From contig CAZWUL010000001.1 of NCBI GenBank assembly GCA_964636625.1, forward strand, positions 20,534-84,533: a DNA stretch of 64,000 nt. Direction: 5' to 3'. Below, piece after piece: positions 8,678-55,720 of the stretch (position 1 is its first letter; each line of letters begins with the position of its first letter). This stretch comes from an uncultured Atribacterota bacterium (GTDB lineage: Bacteria > Atribacterota > Phoenicimicrobiia > Phoenicimicrobiales > Stramentimicrobiaceae). Made by a program: the position numbers and the translations under genes. The notes below the pieces were generated by a model. It ran no database searches and was not told where the DNA came from. It was given only the letters and a program-made list of their open reading frames with translations.

Positions 8678-9613
8678 ATGATAAATGGTATTTTAAATAT
8701 TAATAAGCCTGAAGGAATTACTTCAGCAAAAGCGGTTCAAATAATCAAAAAAAATTTAAAATTAGACAAAGCAGGACATACTGGAACTCTGGACCCATTT
8801 GCAACTGGAGTTTTACTTGTTTGTGCCAATAAAGCTACTAAAATTGCTCAATACATTTCTATATTAGATAAAGAATATATTGGAACTATGATATTGGGCA
8901 TTACCACTGACACACAAGACCTAAAAGGTAAAACAATCTCAATAAGACCTATTAATAAAAATATACTTGATCTCAAAAAAGTTAATATGGTATTCGAAAG
9001 TTTCCATGGCGATTCGTGGCAAAAGCCGCCAGTATTTTCAGCAAAGAAATATAAAGGTGTACGGTCATATAACTTTGCACGAAAAGGCATTAAAGTGAAT
9101 TTATCTCCGCATAGGATATCTATATATAATATAAATATTCTAAAAATAATATTTGACACTTTCCCCAGTATTATTTTTAAAGTAAGATGTTCCAAAGGAA
9201 CTTATATCAGGGCATTGTGTAATGATATTGGCGAAAAACTTGGTTGTGGTGCTTTTTTATCAAAACTTATAAGAACTAAAGTAGGTAATTACAATATTGA
9301 ACACTCTATCGAGTTAAACAGTTTTATAGAAAAGCCAGCGCCTGAGCAAAGAAAATATATGTTAACAATTAACCAATCTTTAAGTCATTACAGAAAAATA
9401 ATTCTAAATGAAAATAAGAGTCTAATTGCAAAAATAAAAAATGGAAATCAATTTTCCGAGAAAGAAATAAATTGCATAACAAATTGTCAGGACAGTATTT
9501 CGACTGACACATATAGAGTCTGCTCTTATGATGGCAACTTGTTGGCGATAGCCAAAAGAATAAATAGTCCTGTATATCTAAAAAAATATAAGGTTGAAAA
9601 AGTTTTCATATGA
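8678..9613 (+). CDS. truB: tRNA pseudouridine(55) synthase TruB
   Basis: Catalytic motif GHTGTLDPFATGVLLV and a C-terminal PUA-like extension. Confidence 0.9.
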   Translation: MINGILNINKPEGITSAKAVQIIKKNLKLDKAGHTGTLDPFATGVLLVCANKATKIAQYISILDKEYIGTMILGITTDTQDLKGKTISIRPINKNILDLKKVNMVFESFHGDSWQKPPVFSAKKYKGVRSYNFARKGIKVNLSPHRISIYNINILKIIFDTFPSIIFKVRCSKGTYIRALCNDIGEKLGCGAFLSKLIRTKVGNYNIEHSIELNSFIEKPAPEQRKYMLTINQSLSHYRKIILNENKSLIAKIKNGNQFSEKEINCITNCQDSISTDTYRVCSYDGNLLAIAKRINSPVYLKKYKVEKVFI

Positions 9614-10581
9614 CAAATAATAAAAAAAATAATTATGAATATAAACAGATTAACTATTTTAATATTTACAATAAAGATATGAAAAAATACATTGCATTGG
9701 GGTTTTTCGATGGAATACACCTTGGCCATCAGGCCTTATTAAATTGGTGTGTAAAAAAGGCAAAAGCTGCTGGCGCTATAAGCACTGTTATCCTTTTCGA
9801 CCAACATCCAGAAAAAGTTATTAACAAGTTAAATAATTATTCACTCCTGACAACATTAGCAGAGCAAATAGAAAAAATAAGAAAAAAAGGTATTCAAAAA
9901 ATAATAATTTTTAAATTTGATGAGAATTTTTCTAAAATTAAAGCAGAAGAATTTATAATAGAGGTATTATTAAAAAAGTTTAAAATGGGAGCAGTTTTTA
10001 CAGGACATGATTATCATTTTGGTTACCAAAAAAAAGGTGATATCGCTTTGCTAAAAAAATTAGGAGAAATATATAATTTCGAGTCATATGTTATGAATTC
10101 TATAACAATGAATAGTAACCAAAAGATTAGTAGCACCGTTATTAAAGATTATTTAAAAAATGGTGATATCGAGAAGGCAAATAAATTATTGGGATATCAT
10201 TATCAAATGCGTGGTAAGGTCATACATGGTGACAATAGAGGAAATTCTGTTCTTTCTTTTCCAACAGCAAATTTGGAAATAGAACCTGAGAAGCTTTTAC
10301 CAAAGAACGGAGTATATCTAGGGTTTACTCATTATAAAGGAAGAAAATATAATAGCTTGATTAATATAGGCTTCAAACCCACCTTCAAGCTTGAAAAATG
10401 GAATATCTCTGTTGAAGTATATATATTTAACTTTAGAAATGATATCTACAATAAAAAAGTCATTATTTCATTTATTAAAAGAATAAGAGATGAAAAAAAG
10501 TATAATAATGCCAGAGACTTAATTTCACAAATAAAACAAGATAAGCTAATCGCAGATAATTATTTTAATGAACATGAATAA
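9610..10581 (+). CDS. ribF: Bifunctional riboflavin kinase / FAD synthetase
   Basis: N-terminal FAD synthetase (GFFDGIHLGHQ) and C-terminal riboflavin kinase domain. ATGA overlap with truB. The real start may be the internal Met at about 9679. Confidence 0.85.
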   Translation: MTNNKKNNYEYKQINYFNIYNKDMKKYIALGFFDGIHLGHQALLNWCVKKAKAAGAISTVILFDQHPEKVINKLNNYSLLTTLAEQIEKIRKKGIQKIIIFKFDENFSKIKAEEFIIEVLLKKFKMGAVFTGHDYHFGYQKKGDIALLKKLGEIYNFESYVMNSITMNSNQKISSTVIKDYLKNGDIEKANKLLGYHYQMRGKVIHGDNRGNSVLSFPTANLEIEPEKLLPKNGVYLGFTHYKGRKYNSLINIGFKPTFKLEKWNISVEVYIFNFRNDIYNKKVIISFIKRIRDEKKYNNARDLISQIKQDKLIADNYFNEHE

Positions 10582-10824
10582 AAAATAAAAAAATAACTAT
10601 ATACTGGTAGATATTTAAAATAGGCAGCAATGAAATAAGTTTGAACGAAGATATTAATTATGTTATAATATATATTTGAATAATATAAAAAGAAGTATTT
10701 TATTGTAAATATTAGCGAGAAGTTTGCTAAACTAACTTAGCTATAAATAAAGATACTAAAATAATAATATTAATTTATTTGATTTTCAATATAAACATTA
10801 TAACAGAAAGAGAGAGTAACTATA

Positions 10825-11091
10825 ATGATCAAAAAAGAAGCTAAAGATAAAATAATAAAAAATTACCAGCATCATGAAAAAGATACTGGTTCAACAGAAG
10901 TACAAGTAGCCATCTTGACAGAGCAAATAAATAGTCTTACTCAACATTTAATACAAAACAAGAAAGACTCTCATTCCAAACATGGGCTATTAAAGATGGT
11001 TGGTAAAAGAAGAAATCTGCTTAACTATCTTAAAGATAATGATATTGAAAAATATCGAAAGTTAATCGGTCAACTAAATTTAAGAAAGTAA
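10825..11091 (+). CDS. rpsO: 30S ribosomal protein S15
   Basis: 88 aa with the typical S15 sequence (HLKxNKKDxxSRRGLLxxVGKRRxLLxYL). Confidence 0.95.
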
Positions 11092-11113
11092 AAATTGATA
11101 ATTTTTACTTTCT
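11083..11113 (+). terminator. rpsO terminator/attenuator hairpin in the rpsO-pnp spacer
   Basis: Perfect 14-bp stem AGAAAGTAAAAATT/AATTTTTACTTTCT with a 3-nt loop. It overlaps the rpsO stop codon and is followed by a T-rich stretch. Confidence 0.6.
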
Positions 11114-11143
11114 TTCATATTAATTTAAGGAGAAAAGAAATTT

Positions 11144-13324
11144 ATGACGAATTCCGTTAATAGAAAAACTGAAATTAAAATTGGGGATAAAAACATCACC
11201 ATAGAAACAGGTAAACTTGCAAAACAGGCTAATGGTTCTGTGTTGCTCACCTGTGGCGAAACAGTTGTACTTGTTACAGCGGTTGCTTCTAAGGAGCCAC
11301 GGGAGGGCATAGATTTTTTCCCTTTACTGGTAGATTATGAGGAAAAATTTTATGCCGCAGGCAAAATACCTGGTGGGTTTTTTAAGCGGGAGGGAAAGCC
11401 CAGCGAAAATGCTGTTTTAACCTCAAGACTAATAGATAGACCATTAAGACCTTTATTCCCTGAGGATTATCATAATGATGTACAGATAATAACATCTGTT
11501 TTATCTTATGATCAAACAAATCTTCCGGACATTATTTCAATAATTGGCGCTTCCTGCGCCCTTTATATTTCAGATATACCTTTCGAAAAACCAATTGCAG
11601 CTGTTAGAATGGGATACTTGAATGGAGAATATATAACCAATCCAACAGTGCAAGAGATAAAAGAATGTCAGCTTAATATCATAGTAGCCGGAACTAAGGA
11701 TTCTGTTATTATGTTAGAAGGGGAAGCAAGAGAATTATCAGAGGAAGAGATATTAATCGCTATCGAGAAAGCACAAGCTGAAATCAGCAAAATTGTAGAT
11801 ATGCAAATACAATTTGCAGAAGATATTAAAGGTGAGAAAAAAATTGAAAAGATTTGGCAACCTGACAAATTGTTGTTAGAAGAAAAAGAAAAACATTATC
11901 ATATTGTAAAAGAAAATTATAGTGAGAAGATTGAAAATGCTTTAACTATATTTGACAAGACAGAAAGAGAAGACAATTTAAATGTAATATTAGATGAAAT
12001 ACTTGCTTATTATGAAGAAAATGAAGTAGAAAAAGAATCTAAATCTAATAGTGCATTAATAAAAAGCATATTTGATACTCTTTGTAAAGAGATTATGAGA
12101 AGAATTATAATTGAAAAAGAAACACGCCTGGATAGGCGAAAAATAGATGAAGTAAGACCTATACAATGCGAAACAGGTATTTTACCAAGAGTACATGGTA
12201 GTGCTCTTTTTACCAGAGGACAAACCCAGGCTTTAGTAATTACTACTCTTGGGTCTGTAAGAGATGAACAATCAATTGATACATTAGAAGAAGATAGTTC
12301 TCGTAAGTTCTACCTGCATTATAATTTTCCACCTTTTTCAGTAGGCGATGTTAAACCAAGAAGGTCTCAATCAAGAAGAGAAATAGGTCATGGAGCTTTA
12401 GCCGAGAAAGCTATCAAGGCTCTACTTCCTGATGAAACTGATTTTCCTTATACAATTAGGGTTGTGTCTGAAATATTGGAATCGAACGGTTCTTCTTCAA
12501 TGGCAACTGTTTGCGGTACCAGCATGTCATTGATGGACGCAGGCGTTCCTATAAAAAAACCAATTGCAGGTGTAGCGCTTGGCCTTGTAAAAGAGAAGGA
12601 TGATTATAAAATACTAACTGATATTTTAGGAATTGAAGATCATTATGGAGATATGGACTTTAAAGCTGCAGGTTCAAAGGATGGCATTACTGCTATTCAA
12701 ATGGATTTAAAAATAGATGGGGTATCTCTTGATATTCTCAAGGATATAATTGAGCGTTCCAAAGAGGGACGATTATATATTCTTGAAAGAATGAATCAGG
12801 TTATAGAAAAACCAAGAGAAGAACTTTCCAACTATGTTCCAAAAATTTTTATAATGAAGGTGAGTCCTGACAAAATAGGTTGTGTTATTGGTCCCAGCGG
12901 AAAAAATATAAAGAAAATCATTGAAGAAAGCGATACTAATATTGATATAAAAGACAATGGTGAAATATTTATAACTGCTGATGATATTGAAAAAATAGAA
13001 AAAGCAAAATATCTTATAGAAGGATTAGTAAGGGAAGTAAAAGCCGGGGAAATTTACAATGGAAAAGTAAAAAGAATTACTAAATACGGTGCCTTTGTAG
13101 AAATATTACCAGGGGTGGAAGGTCTCTTACATATATCTAATTTATCACATTATCATGTTGATAAAGTTGAAGATGTGATAAAAATGGATGATGAATTTCA
13201 GGTTAAGGTAATAGGTGTTGATCAGCAAGGGAAGATTGATCTTAGCAAAAAAGATCTAAGTCCAAAACCAAATCGAAACGACAACTACCATAAACGTTCC
13301 CAAAATAAATCTGTACATAGATAA
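11144..13324 (+). CDS. pnp: Polynucleotide phosphorylase (polyribonucleotide nucleotidyltransferase)
   Basis: Two RNase PH domains, KH and S1 domains, 726 aa. Follows rpsO. Confidence 0.95.
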   Translation: MTNSVNRKTEIKIGDKNITIETGKLAKQANGSVLLTCGETVVLVTAVASKEPREGIDFFPLLVDYEEKFYAAGKIPGGFFKREGKPSENAVLTSRLIDRPLRPLFPEDYHNDVQIITSVLSYDQTNLPDIISIIGASCALYISDIPFEKPIAAVRMGYLNGEYITNPTVQEIKECQLNIIVAGTKDSVIMLEGEARELSEEEILIAIEKAQAEISKIVDMQIQFAEDIKGEKKIEKIWQPDKLLLEEKEKHYHIVKENYSEKIENALTIFDKTEREDNLNVILDEILAYYEENEVEKESKSNSALIKSIFDTLCKEIMRRIIIEKETRLDRRKIDEVRPIQCETGILPRVHGSALFTRGQTQALVITTLGSVRDEQSIDTLEEDSSRKFYLHYNFPPFSVGDVKPRRSQSRREIGHGALAEKAIKALLPDETDFPYTIRVVSEILESNGSSSMATVCGTSMSLMDAGVPIKKPIAGVALGLVKEKDDYKILTDILGIEDHYGDMDFKAAGSKDGITAIQMDLKIDGVSLDILKDIIERSKEGRLYILERMNQVIEKPREELSNYVPKIFIMKVSPDKIGCVIGPSGKNIKKIIEESDTNIDIKDNGEIFITADDIEKIEKAKYLIEGLVREVKAGEIYNGKVKRITKYGAFVEILPGVEGLLHISNLSHYHVDKVEDVIKMDDEFQVKVIGVDQQGKIDLSKKDLSPKPNRNDNYHKRSQNKSVHR

Positions 13325-13345
13325 TTTAGAAAATTTTAGAAATAA

Positions 13346-13828
13346 TTGTTGATAATGAATAAAGAAATAGAACAAATAAAAGTCAAAGTAGAGAAAGATA
13401 AAGGTTGTGATGATTTACCTTTACCTAAAGCAGCCAGTCAATATGCCTCAGGAATAGACTTGTTTTCTGCTGAGCAAAAAGAAGTAATAATCAATAAAGG
13501 TGAGGTAAAATTAGTTTCAACAGGCATAAAAATAGCCTTACCGATAGGCTTTGAAGCACAGGTCAGACCCAGGAGTGGATTAGCCTATCGTTATGGTATA
13601 ACTGTCCTTAATACACCAGGAACAATCGATTCTGATTACCGTGGTGTTATAAAAATAATTCTAATAAATCATGGTAAGGAAAGGTTTGCTATTAACCGAG
13701 GGGATAGAATTGCACAATTGGTGATACAAAAAATATACCAACCAGTTTTAGTTGAAACTGATAAATTAGATGATACCAAACGAGGCATTGGTGGTTTTGG
13801 ACACACCGGAATAAAGGCAAATAATTAA
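13346..13828 (+). CDS. dut: dUTP diphosphatase
   Basis: dUTPase motifs (RSGLA, GTIDSDYRG, RIAQL), 160 aa. Confidence 0.9.
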   Translation: MLIMNKEIEQIKVKVEKDKGCDDLPLPKAASQYASGIDLFSAEQKEVIINKGEVKLVSTGIKIALPIGFEAQVRPRSGLAYRYGITVLNTPGTIDSDYRGVIKIILINHGKERFAINRGDRIAQLVIQKIYQPVLVETDKLDDTKRGIGGFGHTGIKANN

Positions 13829-13863
13829 TAGATAACAATAATACTAAATAAAAGTATTATTCA

Positions 13864-14709
13864 TTGGGAAGAAAAGTAAGGAAGCCAATGCATTATGTTA
13901 TTTTAGGTTTAGTTCAAGGATTAACCGAGTTCCTTCCGGTAAGCAGTTCCGGTCACCTGGTAATAGTTCAGTATTTATTGGGTTTACAGATACCCGGTGT
14001 CGCTTTTGAAACATTTGCACATTTTGGAACCCTTTTAGCTGTTATTTTTCTCTTTAGACATGATATTAAGTTCATTATTATTGATTTTTGTAAAAGTTTA
14101 AAAACAATTTATAAAAGGAAATTATTTTTAAAATATATTAATAAAAATCCGCAATCTAAATTTGGCTGGTTATTGCTAATTAGTACTATACCAGGAGCTT
14201 TAACCGGTTATTATTTTGAATCTACTTTTGAAAAACTCTTTGGAAATCCAGCTATTGTCTCTTTAATGCTTGTAGTAACCGGGATATCTCTTTTTATTAC
14301 AGATAAGTTTCTAATAAAAGGCAGTAAGGGAATGAAGGGGATCACTTTTATCGATGCTATTTTTATTGGCTTTGCGCAGGCATTTGCAATAATTCCTGGT
14401 ATCTCGCGCTCAGGTTTTACCATAATGATGGCTCTTAGTAGAAACGTAAAGCGCGAATTTGCAGCTAAATACTCTTTTATTTTATCAGTTCCAATTATTG
14501 TTGGAGCAACATTATTTAAAATTAAAGACATATATAATCTTGATATTAGCATAAATTTGTTAATTTTATCTGGGTTGGCTGCTTTTTTATCCGGTTATTG
14601 GGCTATGCTTTTTTTTATAAAAATGCTTGTGAAACACCAACTAAGAATTTTTAGCTATTATCTCTGGATTATTGGCATAACTACATTTTTGTTTTATTTA
14701 GCAAATTAA
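13864..14709 (+). CDS. uppP: Undecaprenyl-diphosphatase UppP/BacA
   Basis: Multi-TM protein with the SRSG and PGxSRSG motifs of the BacA family. Confidence 0.85.
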   Translation: MGRKVRKPMHYVILGLVQGLTEFLPVSSSGHLVIVQYLLGLQIPGVAFETFAHFGTLLAVIFLFRHDIKFIIIDFCKSLKTIYKRKLFLKYINKNPQSKFGWLLLISTIPGALTGYYFESTFEKLFGNPAIVSLMLVVTGISLFITDKFLIKGSKGMKGITFIDAIFIGFAQAFAIIPGISRSGFTIMMALSRNVKREFAAKYSFILSVPIIVGATLFKIKDIYNLDISINLLILSGLAAFLSGYWAMLFFIKMLVKHQLRIFSYYLWIIGITTFLFYLAN

Positions 14710-16934
14710 TGTTTAAAGGTAAAAAAATGGCAAAGAATAGCAAAAAAAACTATTCAATAAGAAAAAGAGTCATAGGTATCATTATTATTTCGCTTGCTGT
14801 TTATTATTTATTTGCGTTGATATTTCCTGCAAATAATTTCATTTTTATCAATTCCGTTACTTATCACTTAAACCAGCTATTTGGTATCGGAAAATATTTC
14901 ATCTTTTTATTTCTAGTGGCAGAAGGTCTAAGCTTATTATTTAATATTCGTTTCCATAATTATTACAATAAGTTATTTGGTATTACTGCTTTATTGTTGA
15001 TTATACTGGCTTTTTTACATCTTAGGTTAATATTTTTAGAGCATGCTTACTTGCTGGCAAAAAATGGGGCAGGAGGTGGGCTATATGGCTTTTATCTGTC
15101 AAGATATCTTTATAGTTATTTTGGCTTAACAGGTGCTTACCTGTTTTTAATTGCACTGGGTTTAATATCTATTTTATTTATTACTGATGTTTCTTTTGTT
15201 TATGCCATATGTTTTTTCTTTAGAAAAATGTATTATATTATCAGTAGTGCTATTTCTGGTATTAAAGAAAAACAAACCAGTTTACAGAAAACAGTAAAAA
15301 GAGAAAACCAGGATAAAAATATTGTCATATATTCAAATAACGAAGAAAAAACAAAAAAAAGACTGGAGCCAATTTTCAGTAAAAAATCTAATTCTAAAGA
15401 AAAAAAGGCATCTGCTGCAAATACACAGGAGGAAATTAATTTTTCACCAAGAGAATACAACAATAAGAAGAAAAAAGAAGTCGGTTGTGAATACGAAATA
15501 CCTCCAATTGATTTATTACAAGGGGTTCAAAAAGAATTCAGGGCTAAAGGACAAGAAAAAATAAAGAATAATATTACTTTATTGCAAAAAACTTTAGATA
15601 ATTTTGGTATTCAGGGAGAGGTAATAGGGGCCACTCAGGGTCCTACAGTTACAAGATATGAGATTCAGCCGGCACCGGGTGTTAAAGTATCAAAAATTAC
15701 TAATCTAAGCAATGATATTGCCCTGGCCTTTGCTGCAGCTTCTGTCAGAATTGAAGCACCTATTCCTGGCAAAAATGCTATTGGGATTGAAGTTCCTAAT
15801 AGAGAAAAAGATACAGTATTATTAAGAGAAATTATAGAATCAAATGAATTTCAAGATAATTCATTAATTTTACCTATAGCTCTTGGAAAAGATATTGGTG
15901 GGAAGAACATTATTGCAGATTTAGTTGATTTACCGCATTTACTCATTGCAGGCTCTACTGGCTCAGGAAAGAGCGTGTGTCTTAATTCAATTATTTTAAG
16001 TTTAATTTATCGTTTTGGTCCTGAAATGGTTAGATTCCTTATGGTTGACCCAAAAAGAGTTGAGCTAAATGTATACAATGGTATTCCGCATCTGGTTATT
16101 CCAATTATTACTGATACGAAAAAAGTAGACAAAGTATTAAATTGGGCTATCTCTGAGATGGAAAACAGATTTAAAATATTCGCCGAAGTTGGGGTACGAA
16201 ATTTGAAGGGATATCATGAATATATAAAGAGTGTTAAGGCGGATGAAAAGCCTCTACCATATATAGTTATTATTATTGATGAATTAGCTGACTTAATGAT
16301 GTCCTCACCGGTCAAAATAGAGGAAGCATTGTGCAGGTTAGCTCAAATGACCAGAGCAACCGGCATTCATTTGATTATTGCTACCCAGAGACCATCTGTA
16401 GATATCATCACAGGTTCAATAAAGATAAATTTCCCATCACGAATTGCTTTTGCAGTATCAACACAGGTTGATTCCAGAACTATTCTGGATGTAAATGGAG
16501 CGGAAAAATTATTAGGTAATGGTGATATGCTGTTTTCTCCAATAAATGCTTCAAAACCGATACGTGCCCAGGGTTCTTTTGTTTCAGAGAGAGAAATTAA
16601 AAATATTGTTTCTTTTTTAGAAAAAAATGGTCCTGCTCCAGAATATCAAGAAAATATCCTTAATCATAAAAAAGGGTATAATGGAGAAATAGGGGAAGAA
16701 GAAAACGAAGAAGATGAATTGTTTGAGGATGCTGTGGATACTATTATCAATAATAATCAGGCATCTATATCAATTCTACAAAGGAAGTTGAGAATTGGTT
16801 ATACCAGAGCTGCTCGATTAATTGATATGATGGAAAAGAAGGGGATGGTTGGCCCATATGACGGGAGAAATCCCAGGAAAATATTACTTTCAAAAGATGA
16901 TTATCTCTCAAGAAAAACTATTGAAAATGAATAG
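14709..16934 (+). CDS. ftsK: DNA translocase FtsK/SpoIIIE
   Basis: N-terminal TM segments, Lys-rich linker, Walker A GSTGSGKS, motor domain and C-terminal gamma wHTH. Confidence 0.9.
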   Translation: MFKGKKMAKNSKKNYSIRKRVIGIIIISLAVYYLFALIFPANNFIFINSVTYHLNQLFGIGKYFIFLFLVAEGLSLLFNIRFHNYYNKLFGITALLLIILAFLHLRLIFLEHAYLLAKNGAGGGLYGFYLSRYLYSYFGLTGAYLFLIALGLISILFITDVSFVYAICFFFRKMYYIISSAISGIKEKQTSLQKTVKRENQDKNIVIYSNNEEKTKKRLEPIFSKKSNSKEKKASAANTQEEINFSPREYNNKKKKEVGCEYEIPPIDLLQGVQKEFRAKGQEKIKNNITLLQKTLDNFGIQGEVIGATQGPTVTRYEIQPAPGVKVSKITNLSNDIALAFAAASVRIEAPIPGKNAIGIEVPNREKDTVLLREIIESNEFQDNSLILPIALGKDIGGKNIIADLVDLPHLLIAGSTGSGKSVCLNSIILSLIYRFGPEMVRFLMVDPKRVELNVYNGIPHLVIPIITDTKKVDKVLNWAISEMENRFKIFAEVGVRNLKGYHEYIKSVKADEKPLPYIVIIIDELADLMMSSPVKIEEALCRLAQMTRATGIHLIIATQRPSVDIITGSIKINFPSRIAFAVSTQVDSRTILDVNGAEKLLGNGDMLFSPINASKPIRAQGSFVSEREIKNIVSFLEKNGPAPEYQENILNHKKGYNGEIGEEENEEDELFEDAVDTIINNNQASISILQRKLRIGYTRAARLIDMMEKKGMVGPYDGRNPRKILLSKDDYLSRKTIENE

Positions 16935-17108
16935 TTAGAAGAAAATAATAATTAAGGACATATTTTATTGAAATAAAAAAAATAACGTATTATTATATTA
17001 TTAATAATATTATTAATAAATATTTCAATCTGATTTTTTAAACTTTTGAAAGGAGGGTTCGTTTCTTCTTAGTATTGTTTATTTTTTTACTGTAAATAAT
17101 TTATAAAA

Positions 17109-27816: not shown

Positions 27817-29169
27817 ATGCCAACATACTATATAAAAACTTTTGGTTGTCAAATGAACGTAAATGACTCTGAAATTATTGCAGGACAGTTAGAAGATATG
27901 GGCTATGAAATGACTTCTGATATTAGCAATTCAAATATAATTATTCTTAATACATGCTGTGTCAGAAAAAAAGTTGAACATAAAATATACAGTATGGCGG
28001 GAAGGGCTAGTCAAATAAAAAAAGCAAATCCCGGGGTTATTTTAGGAATCTGCGGTTGTCTGGCACAAAAAGAAAAAGAAAATATACAAAAAAAAGTACC
28101 ATCAGCAGACTTAGTGTTTGGGCCATCTCAGGCTCCATCTTTTAACTCCATCCTGGAACAATATTTGATAAACAAAAAAAGAATAGTTGAATGTAATAAT
28201 AGGGAACTGTTTAATATACAACATGTCCCAATTAAGCATTATAATCAAATATCAGCCTTTGTACAGATTATGAAAGGATGCAATAATTTTTGTTCTTATT
28301 GCATAGTTCCTTTTACAAGAGGTCCTGAAGAAAGCAGACCGTCTGAGGATATAATAAGTGAAATCAATAAATTAGCAAATATAGGCTATAAAGAGGTATT
28401 TTTATTGGGTCAAAATGTAAATTCTTATGGAGTTGATATAATAAATCATGATAATTTCGTTAACTTATTGACAAAAATTAATAATATTGAAAAGATAAAA
28501 AGAATAAGATTTACTACATCACATCCTAAAGATTTTAATCTTGAGTTGATAAAAATTATTAAAAATGGCAAAAAAATATGTGAACACATTCATTTGCCAA
28601 TTCAATCTGGCTCAGATAAGATACTTAAGAGAATGAACAGGAAATATGACATGGCACAATACTATCAAATTATAAGACATATCAGAAATAATATGCCTGA
28701 TGCCAGTATAACCACAGATGCAATGGTTGGTTTTCCAGGAGAAACAGAAAATGACTTCAGATATACCTTAGAAGCATTTAAAGAGATTCAATTTGATTCT
28801 GCTTATACCTTCATGTATTCAAATAGAGAAAAAACATTGGCATCATTGTTTGATTTTCAGGTTGATTATAAGATAAAAAAAGAAAGGTTATGGAAACTGA
28901 TTGATATACAAAAAAAGATATCATATCAAAAAAATAAAAAACTAATTGGTAAAACAGTAGAGATATTAATTGAAAATAAGTCCAAAAAAGATGTCACAAA
29001 TCAATACTGGGGCAAAACACGAACCAATAAAGTAGTAGTATTTTTAAATAAAAATTATTATGAGAGAAAGAAATGTAGTGGGCTAATTGGCAAATTTGCA
29101 GAAATTATTATTCACAACGTAGATGCTTATACATTGTATGGGGAACTCGTTAATGTTAAAGAAAAATAA
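27817..29169 (+). CDS. miaB: tRNA-2-methylthio-N6-dimethylallyladenosine synthase MiaB
   Basis: MTTase N domain, radical SAM CNNFCSYC and TRAM domain, 450 aa. Followed by miaA. Confidence 0.85.
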   Translation: MPTYYIKTFGCQMNVNDSEIIAGQLEDMGYEMTSDISNSNIIILNTCCVRKKVEHKIYSMAGRASQIKKANPGVILGICGCLAQKEKENIQKKVPSADLVFGPSQAPSFNSILEQYLINKKRIVECNNRELFNIQHVPIKHYNQISAFVQIMKGCNNFCSYCIVPFTRGPEESRPSEDIISEINKLANIGYKEVFLLGQNVNSYGVDIINHDNFVNLLTKINNIEKIKRIRFTTSHPKDFNLELIKIIKNGKKICEHIHLPIQSGSDKILKRMNRKYDMAQYYQIIRHIRNNMPDASITTDAMVGFPGETENDFRYTLEAFKEIQFDSAYTFMYSNREKTLASLFDFQVDYKIKKERLWKLIDIQKKISYQKNKKLIGKTVEILIENKSKKDVTNQYWGKTRTNKVVVFLNKNYYERKKCSGLIGKFAEIIIHNVDAYTLYGELVNVKEK

Positions 29170-30127
29170 TATTGTTATACTCACAGGCCCAACAGGAGTA
29201 GGCAAGACTAATATATCTATCAGAATCGCTAAATATATCCCTGAAATTGAAATAATTTCAGCTGACTCAATGCAGATCTATAAAGACCTTAATATTGGAA
29301 CAGATAAGCCTGATATCAGCATTTTAAAGAAATACCCTCACCATTGTATAGATATAGTTTCTCCTATAAAAAATTATGACGTAATGCAATATTTTAACTA
29401 CTCTCATAAATGTATTAAAAATATACTTTCACGAAATAAAAAACCGCTAATAGTGGGAGGTACAGGTCTCTATTTAAAATCATTTATTGAGCCTATTTTT
29501 GATGGACCTGGGAAAAATACAAATATTCGTGCTAATTTAACAAAAATCGCAGCTGATAAGGGAAATAACTTTTTATATGATGAGCTGAAGAAAATTGATG
29601 CTGAATATTCTGCTAAAATTAGTAAAAATGATATAAAGAGAATTATCAGGGGATTAGAAGTATATTATTTAACCGGCCATAAATTATCTTATTTCCACCA
29701 TAAAAGTAAGGATAATGTTTATCAAAATAAACCAAATTACAATTTTTATATTATATGCCTTTTTATGAAAAGAGAAAAAATGTATCAAAAAATAAATGAA
29801 CGAGTAGAAGAGATGATAAAAAAGGGGTTAATTGACGAAACAAAAAATATAATAAATAAATATAAAAAAGAAAATATTAATTTTAAACAATGTACGGCAA
29901 TGCAAGGCTTGGGCTACAAACAGCTACTATTGCATTTAAGAGGTTATATTTCTCTAAATGAAGCTATTGAAACAATAAAAAAAGAAACCCGTCATTTTTC
30001 TAAAAGACAATTAAGCTGGTTTAGAAATCAAATTTCTGTAGACTATTGGATAAATATAGATGAATATAAAAACCTGGAGGAATGTTCCAAAAAAATTATA
30101 AATATAATTAAAAGTATGGGATACTAA
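29123..30127 (+). CDS. miaA: tRNA dimethylallyltransferase MiaA (likely start at 29153)
   Basis: P-loop GPTGVGKT and IPT family features, 334 aa. Confidence 0.88.
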   Translation: MLIHCMGNSLMLKKNNIVILTGPTGVGKTNISIRIAKYIPEIEIISADSMQIYKDLNIGTDKPDISILKKYPHHCIDIVSPIKNYDVMQYFNYSHKCIKNILSRNKKPLIVGGTGLYLKSFIEPIFDGPGKNTNIRANLTKIAADKGNNFLYDELKKIDAEYSAKISKNDIKRIIRGLEVYYLTGHKLSYFHHKSKDNVYQNKPNYNFYIICLFMKREKMYQKINERVEEMIKKGLIDETKNIINKYKKENINFKQCTAMQGLGYKQLLLHLRGYISLNEAIETIKKETRHFSKRQLSWFRNQISVDYWINIDEYKNLEECSKKIINIIKSMGY

Positions 30128-30176
30128 TAAATATTGCAAATAATTTAGAAATGTGGTATATTACAAAAAATATACT

Positions 30177-30204
30177 ACGTCCGATAATGTATCTTATGTA
30201 AAGT
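30177..30204. other. Candidate dif site (XerC/XerD chromosome dimer resolution site) at the replication terminus
   Basis: ACGTCCGATAATGTATCTTATGTAAAGT matches B. subtilis dif ACTTCCTAGAATATATATTATGTAAACT at 22/28 positions and the XerD arm TTATGTAAA exactly. It lies exactly where the gene strand switches. Confidence 0.6.
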
Positions 30205-30573
30205 TATTATTTTATTAATAAAAACTGGTTAGTATATATTTTTTGAAGTTATCTCTCTTATATCACCGTCATAAGTAACAGGGTTGTTTAACAATTTTGA
30301 CTATATTCCCCTTTTATAATATTGCAATATCTTCTGATATAAATACAAAGTACAAAGTTTAAAGTCTCACGATTTGAATAAAAAGTATCACTTAGTAAAA
30401 ATTATGTTCTTCCCCGTGTCTGATTCCAGCAAAGATGATGATTTTTTGTCGTTTTCCCGGTCATCTGCAATTCGGATACTGATTCTAAGACAATAGAGCG
30501 AAGATTGGCAGTATTTTTGTAAAGTTAATACTAATTTCTTATGATTATACCCCTTCTTTATCGGGTATTCATA

Positions 30574-31113
30574 CTACTTTAATTTATCAATTAGCTGGTA
30601 GATAAAATTAATATTTCCTTCATTATCATCAGGAAATTCTTGGGCAAAATCGTGCATTGAAAGGATTAATAAGCGTATCAGTCTTTCTTTGTCTTTATCT
30701 GAAATGTCCAGGTTATTCTTCTCTTCTGCACTATATACTAAAAATCTCATAAGCATGAAAATATGACTTTTTAGGTCTGAGATTAATTTATTATCAATTT
30801 TGTTACTTAAAAATTCTCTCCCAAATATTCTGAGCCTTACTATTTCATTATAAAGAACTTCAACAAATTCATGTGCAGTTTTCTCTTTTTCGATAATATT
30901 ATTTAGAGAAAAAAATATCTGATCAAAACTCAGTTTGAATGATTTTAGAAATAATTCTTGCTTATCAGAATAGTAATTGTAAAGCGTTCCTACAGAAATA
31001 CCGACCTCTTGGGCAACCATTTTCATAGTTACATTATTATAACCATTGTCTGCAAAAAGATTAAAAGCAGAAATATTTATTCTTTCTTCTATATTATCAA
31101 GAATCTTTGGCAA
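30574..31113 (-). CDS. TetR/AcrR family transcriptional regulator
   Basis: N-terminal HTH (NVTMKMVAQEVGISVGTLYNYYSDKQELF), 179 aa. Confidence 0.85.
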   Translation of the reverse strand: MPKILDNIEERINISAFNLFADNGYNNVTMKMVAQEVGISVGTLYNYYSDKQELFLKSFKLSFDQIFFSLNNIIEKEKTAHEFVEVLYNEIVRLRIFGREFLSNKIDNKLISDLKSHIFMLMRFLVYSAEEKNNLDISDKDKERLIRLLILSMHDFAQEFPDDNEGNINFIYQLIDKLK

Positions 31114-34708: not shown

Positions 34709-34773
34709 AACTTTTATTATAATATTCTTAAATAATGTATTTTAATGTATTTTGTAATTTGTTATTTATCAGG

Positions 34774-34847
34774 TGTGCCCGAGAGGATTTGAACCTCCAA
34801 TCTACGGCTCCGGAGGCCGTCGCTTTATCCAATTAAGCCACGGGCAC
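34774..34847 (-). tRNA. tRNA-Arg (anticodon CCG)
   Basis: The reverse complement folds as a cloverleaf. The acceptor stem is GTGCCCG/CGGGCAC, the anticodon stem-loop GGCCT-CCG-GAGCC reads anticodon CCG, and the T-arm is GGTTCAAATCC. Confidence 0.8.
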
Positions 34848-54793: not shown

Positions 54794-55720
54794 TCATTTT
54801 CTTGGAATAGTTTTTTTATATGTTTTTATTAAACTATCTTTGGTAATATGAGTATATATTTGTGTTGTAGACAAACTTTCATGTCCGAGCAATTCTTGCA
54901 CCGATCTTAAATCAGCACCACCATTTAATAAATGGGTTGCAAAAGTATGTCTAAAAACATGCGGGCTGATTTTTTTGTTAAGACAGGCAATTTTAATATA
55001 CTTATTAATAATTCTTCGAATACTTCTAGCTGAAAGCCTTGTCCCAATATTATTAATAAATAATGCTTTATCTGATATTAATTGCCGATAGTTAACATTT
55101 GGAATTTGCTTTCTGTATACTAAATAGTTTTCTATTGCCTTTTTAACCGGATCGCTAAAAGGTACTATTCTTTCTTTAGAACCCTTGCCAAGAACTCTTA
55201 TCGTATTATCTTGAAAACTTATATCATTTATATTTATATCAGAAAGCTCTGTAACTCTCATTCCGGTTCCATACAATAATTCTATAATCGCTTTATCCCT
55301 TTTAGAAGTAGGGTTATTTGCTTTGAAAGACTGAATTAGCTTGATTATTTCTTCATAAAACAAGAAATCTGGCAATCTTTTTTTTACTTTAGGGATTTGC
55401 ACATATTCTGCTGGATTGCTATTAATTAATTCCTGTTGCATTAAATATTTAAAAAACACTCTAAAAGAAGATATTTTCCTTGCTATTGTCCTATCAGCAT
55501 ATCGTTTTTGCTTTAAAAAAACAACATATTTTCTTATAAGCAGGCAATCTATCAAGGAAAAGTCAGCAATCTTGTTAATATTATTGAGGTATAAGAATAA
55601 ATCTTCTAAGTCCCTTAAATATGCATTGATAGTGTTGTAAGAGAAGTTCTTTCTTTCTTCCAAATATTTTCTATAATTATTTAATTGATTTTGCACTATT
55701 AATTTTTTATTTTTACTCAT
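54794..55720 (-). CDS. xerC: Tyrosine recombinase XerC (CodV-like)
   Basis: Catalytic R...HxxR...Y (HVFRHTFATHLL...TQIYTH), 308 aa. Neighbourhood topA-xerC-hslVU as in the B. subtilis codV operon. Confidence 0.85.
   Translation of the reverse strand: MSKNKKLIVQNQLNNYRKYLEERKNFSYNTINAYLRDLEDLFLYLNNINKIADFSLIDCLLIRKYVVFLKQKRYADRTIARKISSFRVFFKYLMQQELINSNPAEYVQIPKVKKRLPDFLFYEEIIKLIQSFKANNPTSKRDKAIIELLYGTGMRVTELSDININDISFQDNTIRVLGKGSKERIVPFSDPVKKAIENYLVYRKQIPNVNYRQLISDKALFINNIGTRLSARSIRRIINKYIKIACLNKKISPHVFRHTFATHLLNGGADLRSVQELLGHESLSTTQIYTHITKDSLIKTYKKTIPRK

Follow-up and report, generated by a model that had tools for sequence, protein, structure and literature searches.

The 28-bp sequence ACGTCCGATAATGTATCTTATGTAAAGT, read directly on the + strand at positions 30177-30204 of the window (the whole stretch of 64,000 nucleotides analysed here), is, with a probability that we put at roughly 0.92, the dif site of the chromosome of an uncultured Atribacterota bacterium, at the meeting point of the two replichores. 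The earlier note on this DNA had proposed a dif site at the replication terminus, and this reading found support in the single copy of the 28-mer in the window, in the switch of nucleotide skew and gene orientation, in the conservation of the site in relatives, in the skew flips that accompany the same motif in other phyla, and in the genes for an FtsK with a gamma domain and for a Xer recombinase. The element is very probably of an ordinary, well-known kind, met here in a phylum that is uncultured and little studied. Published predictions of dif cover 641 organisms belonging to 16 phyla (Kono et al. 2011, PMC3025954), and Atribacterota is absent from those 16. The 10 best matches of a literature search included no paper on dif in Atribacterota.

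The 28-mer has the architecture of dif sites, i.e. a length of 28 bp, two 11-bp arms, the conserved inner arm bases ATAA and TTAT, and the XerD-arm core TTATGT-AA. Its parts are the following:

30177-30204, + strand: probable dif, 28 bp (arm, centre, arm), unique in the window and conserved in relatives
30177-30187, + strand: XerC-type arm ACGTCCGATAA, the left 11 bp of dif
30188-30193, + strand: central region TGTATC, 6 bp between the arms
30194-30204, + strand: XerD-type arm TTATGTAAAGT, the right 11 bp of dif

Base complementarity between the arms, at 7 of their 11 positions, gives the site a partial dyad symmetry around the 6-bp centre. When the 64-kb window was scanned with the 28-mer allowing up to 3 mismatches, the only match was the site itself, and 100 shuffled sequences yielded none. 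It was still the only match at up to 7 mismatches, thus the proposal that the site is present in a single copy holds as far as the window reaches. The loose pattern ATAATNNNNNNTTATGTAAA matched the window 9 times (7.3 matches expected).

The similarity to the dif sites of model bacteria was determined using the E. coli and B. subtilis reference sequences that are given by Kono et al. 2011 (PMC3025954). Direct comparison confirmed the previously claimed match to B. subtilis dif, with 22 of 28 positions identical and the whole XerD-arm core TTATGTAAA shared. The B. subtilis site, which is served by CodV/XerC and RipX/XerD with SpoIIIE/SftA, has the same 28-bp 11-6-11 layout; in the window, which comes from another phylum (Atribacterota), six bases differ, among them C for A at the last central position and GAT for TAG in the XerC arm. 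The E. coli dif is less similar overall (19/28) and its outer XerC arm is unrelated, whereas the 16-base core of the 28-mer (core ATAATGTAT-TTATGT) is one base off the E. coli core. The earlier note had drawn an argument from this core: the single-base difference is real, but the likeness to E. coli dif has no significance alone, as 19/28 was also reached in 165 of 200 dinucleotide shuffles of the window. At least 22/28 to B. subtilis dif occurred in 3 of the 200 shuffles. It must be noted that, because the window is AT-rich (~30% GC), the raw likeness to the dif sites of model bacteria attains no more than marginal significance. Simple profile searches are defeated by low-GC genomes (Kono et al. 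2011, PMC3025954), and raw similarity suffers from the same weakness here. These shuffle frequencies in a 30% GC window, and the promoter-like hexamers that overlap the 28-mer, are what could be cited for a chance AT-rich near-palindrome, or for an operator or terminator of the adjacent genes with an accidental likeness to dif, an explanation that we regard as scarcely credible in view of the comparisons described below. With the 16 positions that are invariant among the published dif seeds of E. coli, B. subtilis and Frankia alni (PMC3025954), the 28-mer agrees at 15, and it is the only site in the window with at least 15; a site at 15/16 or better was present in 2.7% of 300 shuffles.

Conservation was studied in nine related loci, namely eight contigs fetched via their MiaA homologues, which are 55-76% identical (L127-L134), and an Atribacterota MAG contig (L118) in which the order rny-miaB-miaA is the same as in the window. 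The MiaA proteins of these loci are 54-76% identical to that of the window, and the named MiaA homologues down to ~52% identity come nearly all from Atribacterota MAGs. In all nine relatives the gene direction switches convergently right after miaA, and all nine have exactly one dif-like 28-mer, located 27-70 bp past the miaA stop codon in the same orientation as in the window and single in each ~17-kb locus. GC skew at these sites changes from between +0.14 and +0.21 on the left to between -0.12 and -0.22 on the right in all eight loci that have ~8 kb on each side; L118, which extends only ~300 bp to the right of dif, was left out of this comparison. Positions 6-28 of the 28-mer (CGATAAT[G/A]TATCTTATGTAAAGT) are invariant in the nine relatives save for position 13, which is G or A, while the outer five bases of the left, XerC-type arm vary. 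Except for the closest relative, the DNA flanking the 28-mer cannot be aligned among these loci. A conserved interior amid unalignable flanks is the footprint that selection leaves on a protein-binding site, and the combination of a variable outer XerC arm with a fixed XerD arm is the pattern typical of dif. Retention of 23 consecutive bases (position 13 excepted) at MiaA identities down to 54%, between flanks that no longer align, also speaks strongly against a chance resemblance or an operator. Across the gap, six further contigs from this species do not differ from the window and are thus uninformative for conservation.

A similar picture emerged on a much wider phylogenetic scale. The pattern CCGATAATNTATNTTATGTAAA, which represents the inner 22-mer, was searched by exact matching in species representatives (one genome per species), and it was found at no fewer than 120 loci, each with a single match, that represent at least 12 phyla. 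The matches listed include Bacillota, Acidobacteriota, Actinomycetota, Ignavibacteria/Bacteroidota, Thermodesulfobacteriota, Planctomycetota, Omnitrophota, Pseudomonadota, Atribacterota and others. Some of the genomes among these listed matches have a GC content of 60-73%, where chance can be ruled out as the source of such an AT-rich 22-mer. Among the matches listed, 60 loci could be tested for a skew flip, i.e. extended 1.5 kb or more to either side of the match; the skew changed from + to - at the match in 42 of them and in the opposite direction in 2. Judging by the frequency of these flips, the motif marks termini generally, and the occurrence of the same 22-mer at such flips also where the genome is GC-rich and belongs to another phylum is a further argument against a chance or operator origin of the site in the window. 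In the cross-locus comparison the information content falls to background immediately outside the 28 bases. The exact 28-mer of the window is also present in an Omnitrophica MAG (MHFM01000038.1, L106), and the 24-mer CCGATAATGTATCTTATGTAAAGT occurs in MAGs of Acidimicrobiia and other Actinomycetota with 64-69% GC (L009, L024, L069 and L092). These exact matches indicate that the dif core differs little between distant phyla.

The gap in which the 28-mer lies is bordered by the following features:

29153-30127, + strand: miaA, last gene of the left replichore (Pfam IPPT, E = 2e-78; metagenome gene call of 324 aa)
30128-30573, no strand: convergent intergenic gap between the replichore ends, the switch point of gene orientation, GC skew and AT skew
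30574-31113, - strand: TetR-family regulator, last gene of the right replichore (Pfam TetR_N)
34772-34847, - strand: tRNA-Arg (CCG), 4.6 kb right of dif; no other RNA gene was detected in the window

The 28-mer was indeed found between the convergent miaA (+) and tetR (-) genes, on the + strand as written at 30177-30204; the gap described in the earlier note exists, but with the miaA stop at 30127 and the TetR stop at 30574 its size is 446 bp, not 447. All ORFs of at least 100 aa are on the + strand left of 30127 and on the - strand right of 30574, when ORFs nested in a longer opposite-strand ORF are left out of the count, thus the switch from + genes to - genes at the 28-mer, which had been proposed earlier, is a property of the window as a whole. 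In the left 30 kb GC skew stays between +0.12 and +0.22, in the right 34 kb between -0.12 and -0.20, and AT skew follows the same course on either side of the gap. The predicted inversion of the skew at about 30.2 kb, checked within the window, was found with cumulative maxima at 30248 (G-C) and 30187 (A-T); the 28-mer is less than 45 bp from the former and lies inside the interval that holds the latter. A cumulative-skew maximum combined with convergent, co-oriented genes points to the polarity of a terminus, not of an origin, and replication would then end at or near dif. As all genes are co-oriented with the presumed direction of replication, skew and gene orientation are fully confounded here.

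An Rfam scan of the gap was negative both with the gathering threshold and with a cut-off of E ≤ 1, and a search of the gap revealed neither a terminator-like site or hairpin nor an ORF longer than 42 aa. The lack of a terminator-like structure disfavours a transcription terminator, and the position of the 28-mer downstream of both convergent genes is not that of an operator at a promoter. The possibility that the site is a TetR operator was ruled out, because dif is conserved also where no TetR-family gene was called beside it. An A-rich motif resembling TATAAAAAATA is present at 30160-30172, outside the XerC-type arm, and similar motifs are found 3-12 bp beyond this arm in 6 of the 10 Atribacterota loci (the window, L127, L128, L129, L131 and L132). 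They may reflect mere relatedness of these loci, or may represent an accessory or termination signal.

Immediately left of the gap are the genes of RNase Y, MiaB and MiaA, and right of it those of TetR, DUF498 and Memo proteins, followed by an NHL/TPR protein. More broadly, the left side carries infB, pnp, ftsK, recA-recX, rny and miaB-miaA, whereas the right side carries V-type ATPase genes, rpsB, an ORF at the hslV position, hslU, xer and topA. A plasmid or chromid as the source of the window was ruled out by the presence of infB, pnp, ftsK, recA, rny, rpsB, topA and the V-ATPase genes. The two gene runs that meet at dif are infB-pnp-ftsK-recA-rny-miaA (1-30127, +) and topA-xer-hslV-position ORF-hslU-rpsB onward (30574-64000, -); the genes comparable to both of these converging runs presumably form one co-oriented series in B. 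subtilis. The genes for FtsK, RecA, Xer and TopA are all less than 26 kb from dif. The sequence of the gap is identical in the matching metagenome contigs (JGI and ENA samples, up to 138 kb), and the same arrangement in independent JGI and ENA assemblies shows that it is not an assembly artefact.

Two proteins of the dimer resolution machinery are encoded in the window:

14709-16934, + strand: FtsK/SpoIIIE DNA translocase (NCBIfam FtsK; Pfam FtsK_4TM, FtsK_alpha, FtsK_SpoIIIE and FtsK_gamma)
54794-55720, - strand: Xer-family tyrosine recombinase, XerC/CodV-like (NCBIfam profiles, active-site motifs)

The FtsK protein has a clear gamma domain (PF09397 FtsK_gamma, E = 4e-28), the domain which activates XerD, and it is the presumed activator of Xer at dif. 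A gamma-bearing FtsK and a site at the shift point of the skew are features shared with the E. coli dif/XerCD/FtsK-KOPS system. As regards DNA motifs that could orient FtsK, the KOPS/SRS-type motif GGGNAGGG occurs four times on the + and once on the - strand of the left side and on neither strand of the right side, which is too rare to show polarity, and GAGAAGGG does not occur in the window. The most skewed 7- and 8-mers of the window are A/G-rich coding-strand words and are thus confounded with gene orientation.

The XerC-type recombinase gene that the earlier note had placed at 54794..55720 is present on the - strand, and its product is best described as XerC/CodV-like. The translation contains motifs typical of the active site of tyrosine recombinases, including the C-terminal YTH tyrosine, and the protein is annotated as XerC in the source records. 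It scores just below the cut-off of both specific models (TIGR02224 XerC, 326.4 bits against 335.15; TIGR02225 XerD, 308.5 bits against 329.6) and passes the general Xer subfamily model NF001399 (290.1 bits against 279). The gene is located between topA (upstream) and hslVU, with an HslU-type AAA ATPase downstream; this setting, which we take to be that of the operon of codV, the gene of B. subtilis XerC, is one likeness to B. subtilis, another being that the site is placed where two replichores with strong gene orientation converge. The distance from xer to dif is 24.6 kb. No second Xer paralogue or XerD (the RipX partner of B. subtilis) was seen among those of the window's proteins that were scanned with profiles. 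Kono et al. 2011 (PMC3025954) found most xerC genes close to dif, and xerD genes in the vicinity of the origin. The lack of a XerD gene within 64 kb is thus expected and uninformative, and a lone Xer gene 24.6 kb from the site fits this pattern of placement.

It is conceivable that the 28-mer is a true Xer target on which one recombinase serves the two arms in place of a XerC-XerD pair; this would resemble the XerS/difSL, XerH/difH or archaeal XerA/dif systems. We consider this quite unlikely. The single Xer gene in the window would be in line with it, as would the near-equal XerC (326) and XerD (308) scores, which remain under both cut-offs while the cut-off of the archaeal XerA model is exceeded (236.5 against 220). 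The XerC and XerD scores are much higher than the XerA score, the host is a bacterium, and FtsK with a gamma domain is present, whereas archaeal XerA acts alone on dif without FtsK. Against a single recombinase, the two arms of the site are unlike, being complementary at 7 of 11 positions, and one of them is variable and the other invariant among relatives, as is typical of XerC and XerD arms. Genes of single recombinases usually adjoin their site; in streptococci and lactococci the single XerS gene adjoins an atypical 31-bp difSL site. Here the site is of the classical 28-bp type, the recombinase gene is 24.6 kb away, and the protein scores 141.6 bits on the XerS model NF003462, far from its cut-off of 267. 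The lack of a second Xer gene in 64 kb adds little to the case for a lone enzyme, as xerD genes are usually far from dif (PMC3025954).

Under the favoured reading of a classical dif site used by a XerC-XerD pair, the following course of events can be envisaged by analogy with E. coli and B. subtilis. When sister chromosomes have been joined by homologous recombination, septum-bound FtsK would pump DNA until the two copies of dif meet. The XerC/CodV-like enzyme encoded at 54794-55720 would occupy the variable left arm, and a XerD, presumably encoded outside the window, the invariant TTATGTAAA arm. The gamma domain of FtsK would then activate strand exchange over the 6-bp centre, and the dimer would be resolved to monomers.

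On the XerD-arm side of dif the DNA differs from one Atribacterota locus to another, in contrast to the constant miaA side. Depending on the relative (L127-L134), the right flank contains nothing, a TetR gene, a cyclase, an rSAM/SPASM protein, an amidohydrolase together with a DUF772 transposase-like gene, or a prophage-like block. The TetR protein of the window is 75% identical to the TetR of L129, and the gene calls next to dif include no TetR-family member in L127, L128, L130, L131, L132, L133 and L134, in all of which dif is kept. The window has a weak relic, at 30404-30439, of the cyclase gene that relatives have in this place; compared with L129, the window looks like the product of a deletion that removed the cyclase and rSAM genes and left this relic behind. 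In L132 (JGI 3300033174 Ga0334882_1000082) a prophage-like block occupies 8994-16954, beginning 16 bp right of dif, with genes for a repressor-like HTH protein, a DNA methyltransferase, an endolysin, a holin and tail-like proteins. Between L131 and L132 the identity is 94.7% over 9 kb, up to ~42 bp past dif, and beyond this point the two contigs are unrelated.

This variability raises the question of whether the 28-mer is mainly the attachment junction of a Xer-exploiting mobile element (IMEX), the TetR region being integrated cargo. dif is the attachment site of IMEX such as the CTX, TLC and VGJ elements of Vibrio cholerae, and the variable DNA on one constant side of dif, including the prophage genes that start 16 bp past the site in L132, resembles what is seen there. 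An occupied dif is, however, marked by a second, often degenerate, dif-like site flanking the integrated DNA, whereas no such site was found in the window at up to 7 mismatches, nor within 8 kb right of dif in the relatives. The homology between L131 and L132 breaks ~42 bp beside dif and not within it, and the cyclase relic makes the difference between the window and L129 look like a deletion. No viral contig was found to contain the exact Atribacterota dif core, and no dif-like site is present in L135, the one viral contig with a relationship to the prophage of L132. Even with elements integrating there, the 28-mer would remain the chromosomal dif. For these reasons we think it highly improbable that the site is primarily an attachment junction.

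A related suggestion leaves the 28-mer as the chromosomal dif and concerns its XerD-arm flank, which could be a hotspot of Xer-driven gain and loss of genes (traffic resembling that of IMEX or dif modules, the L132 prophage included), perhaps through a single Xer of ambiguous XerC/XerD character. We regard this as an unlikely scenario; if true, mobile elements that exploit Xer would also be at work in an uncultured phylum that branches deeply.

The identification of the 28-mer as dif leaves the understanding of dimer resolution unaltered. What it indicates is that the classical dif core is almost unchanged in Atribacterota, a phylum outside the 2011 survey (PMC3025954). For the genome of this uncultured Atribacterota bacterium dif provides a fixed landmark of the terminus, and such a landmark is of help in ordering MAG contigs, in skew-based and coverage-based (peak-to-trough) estimates of growth, and in finding the origin of replication.
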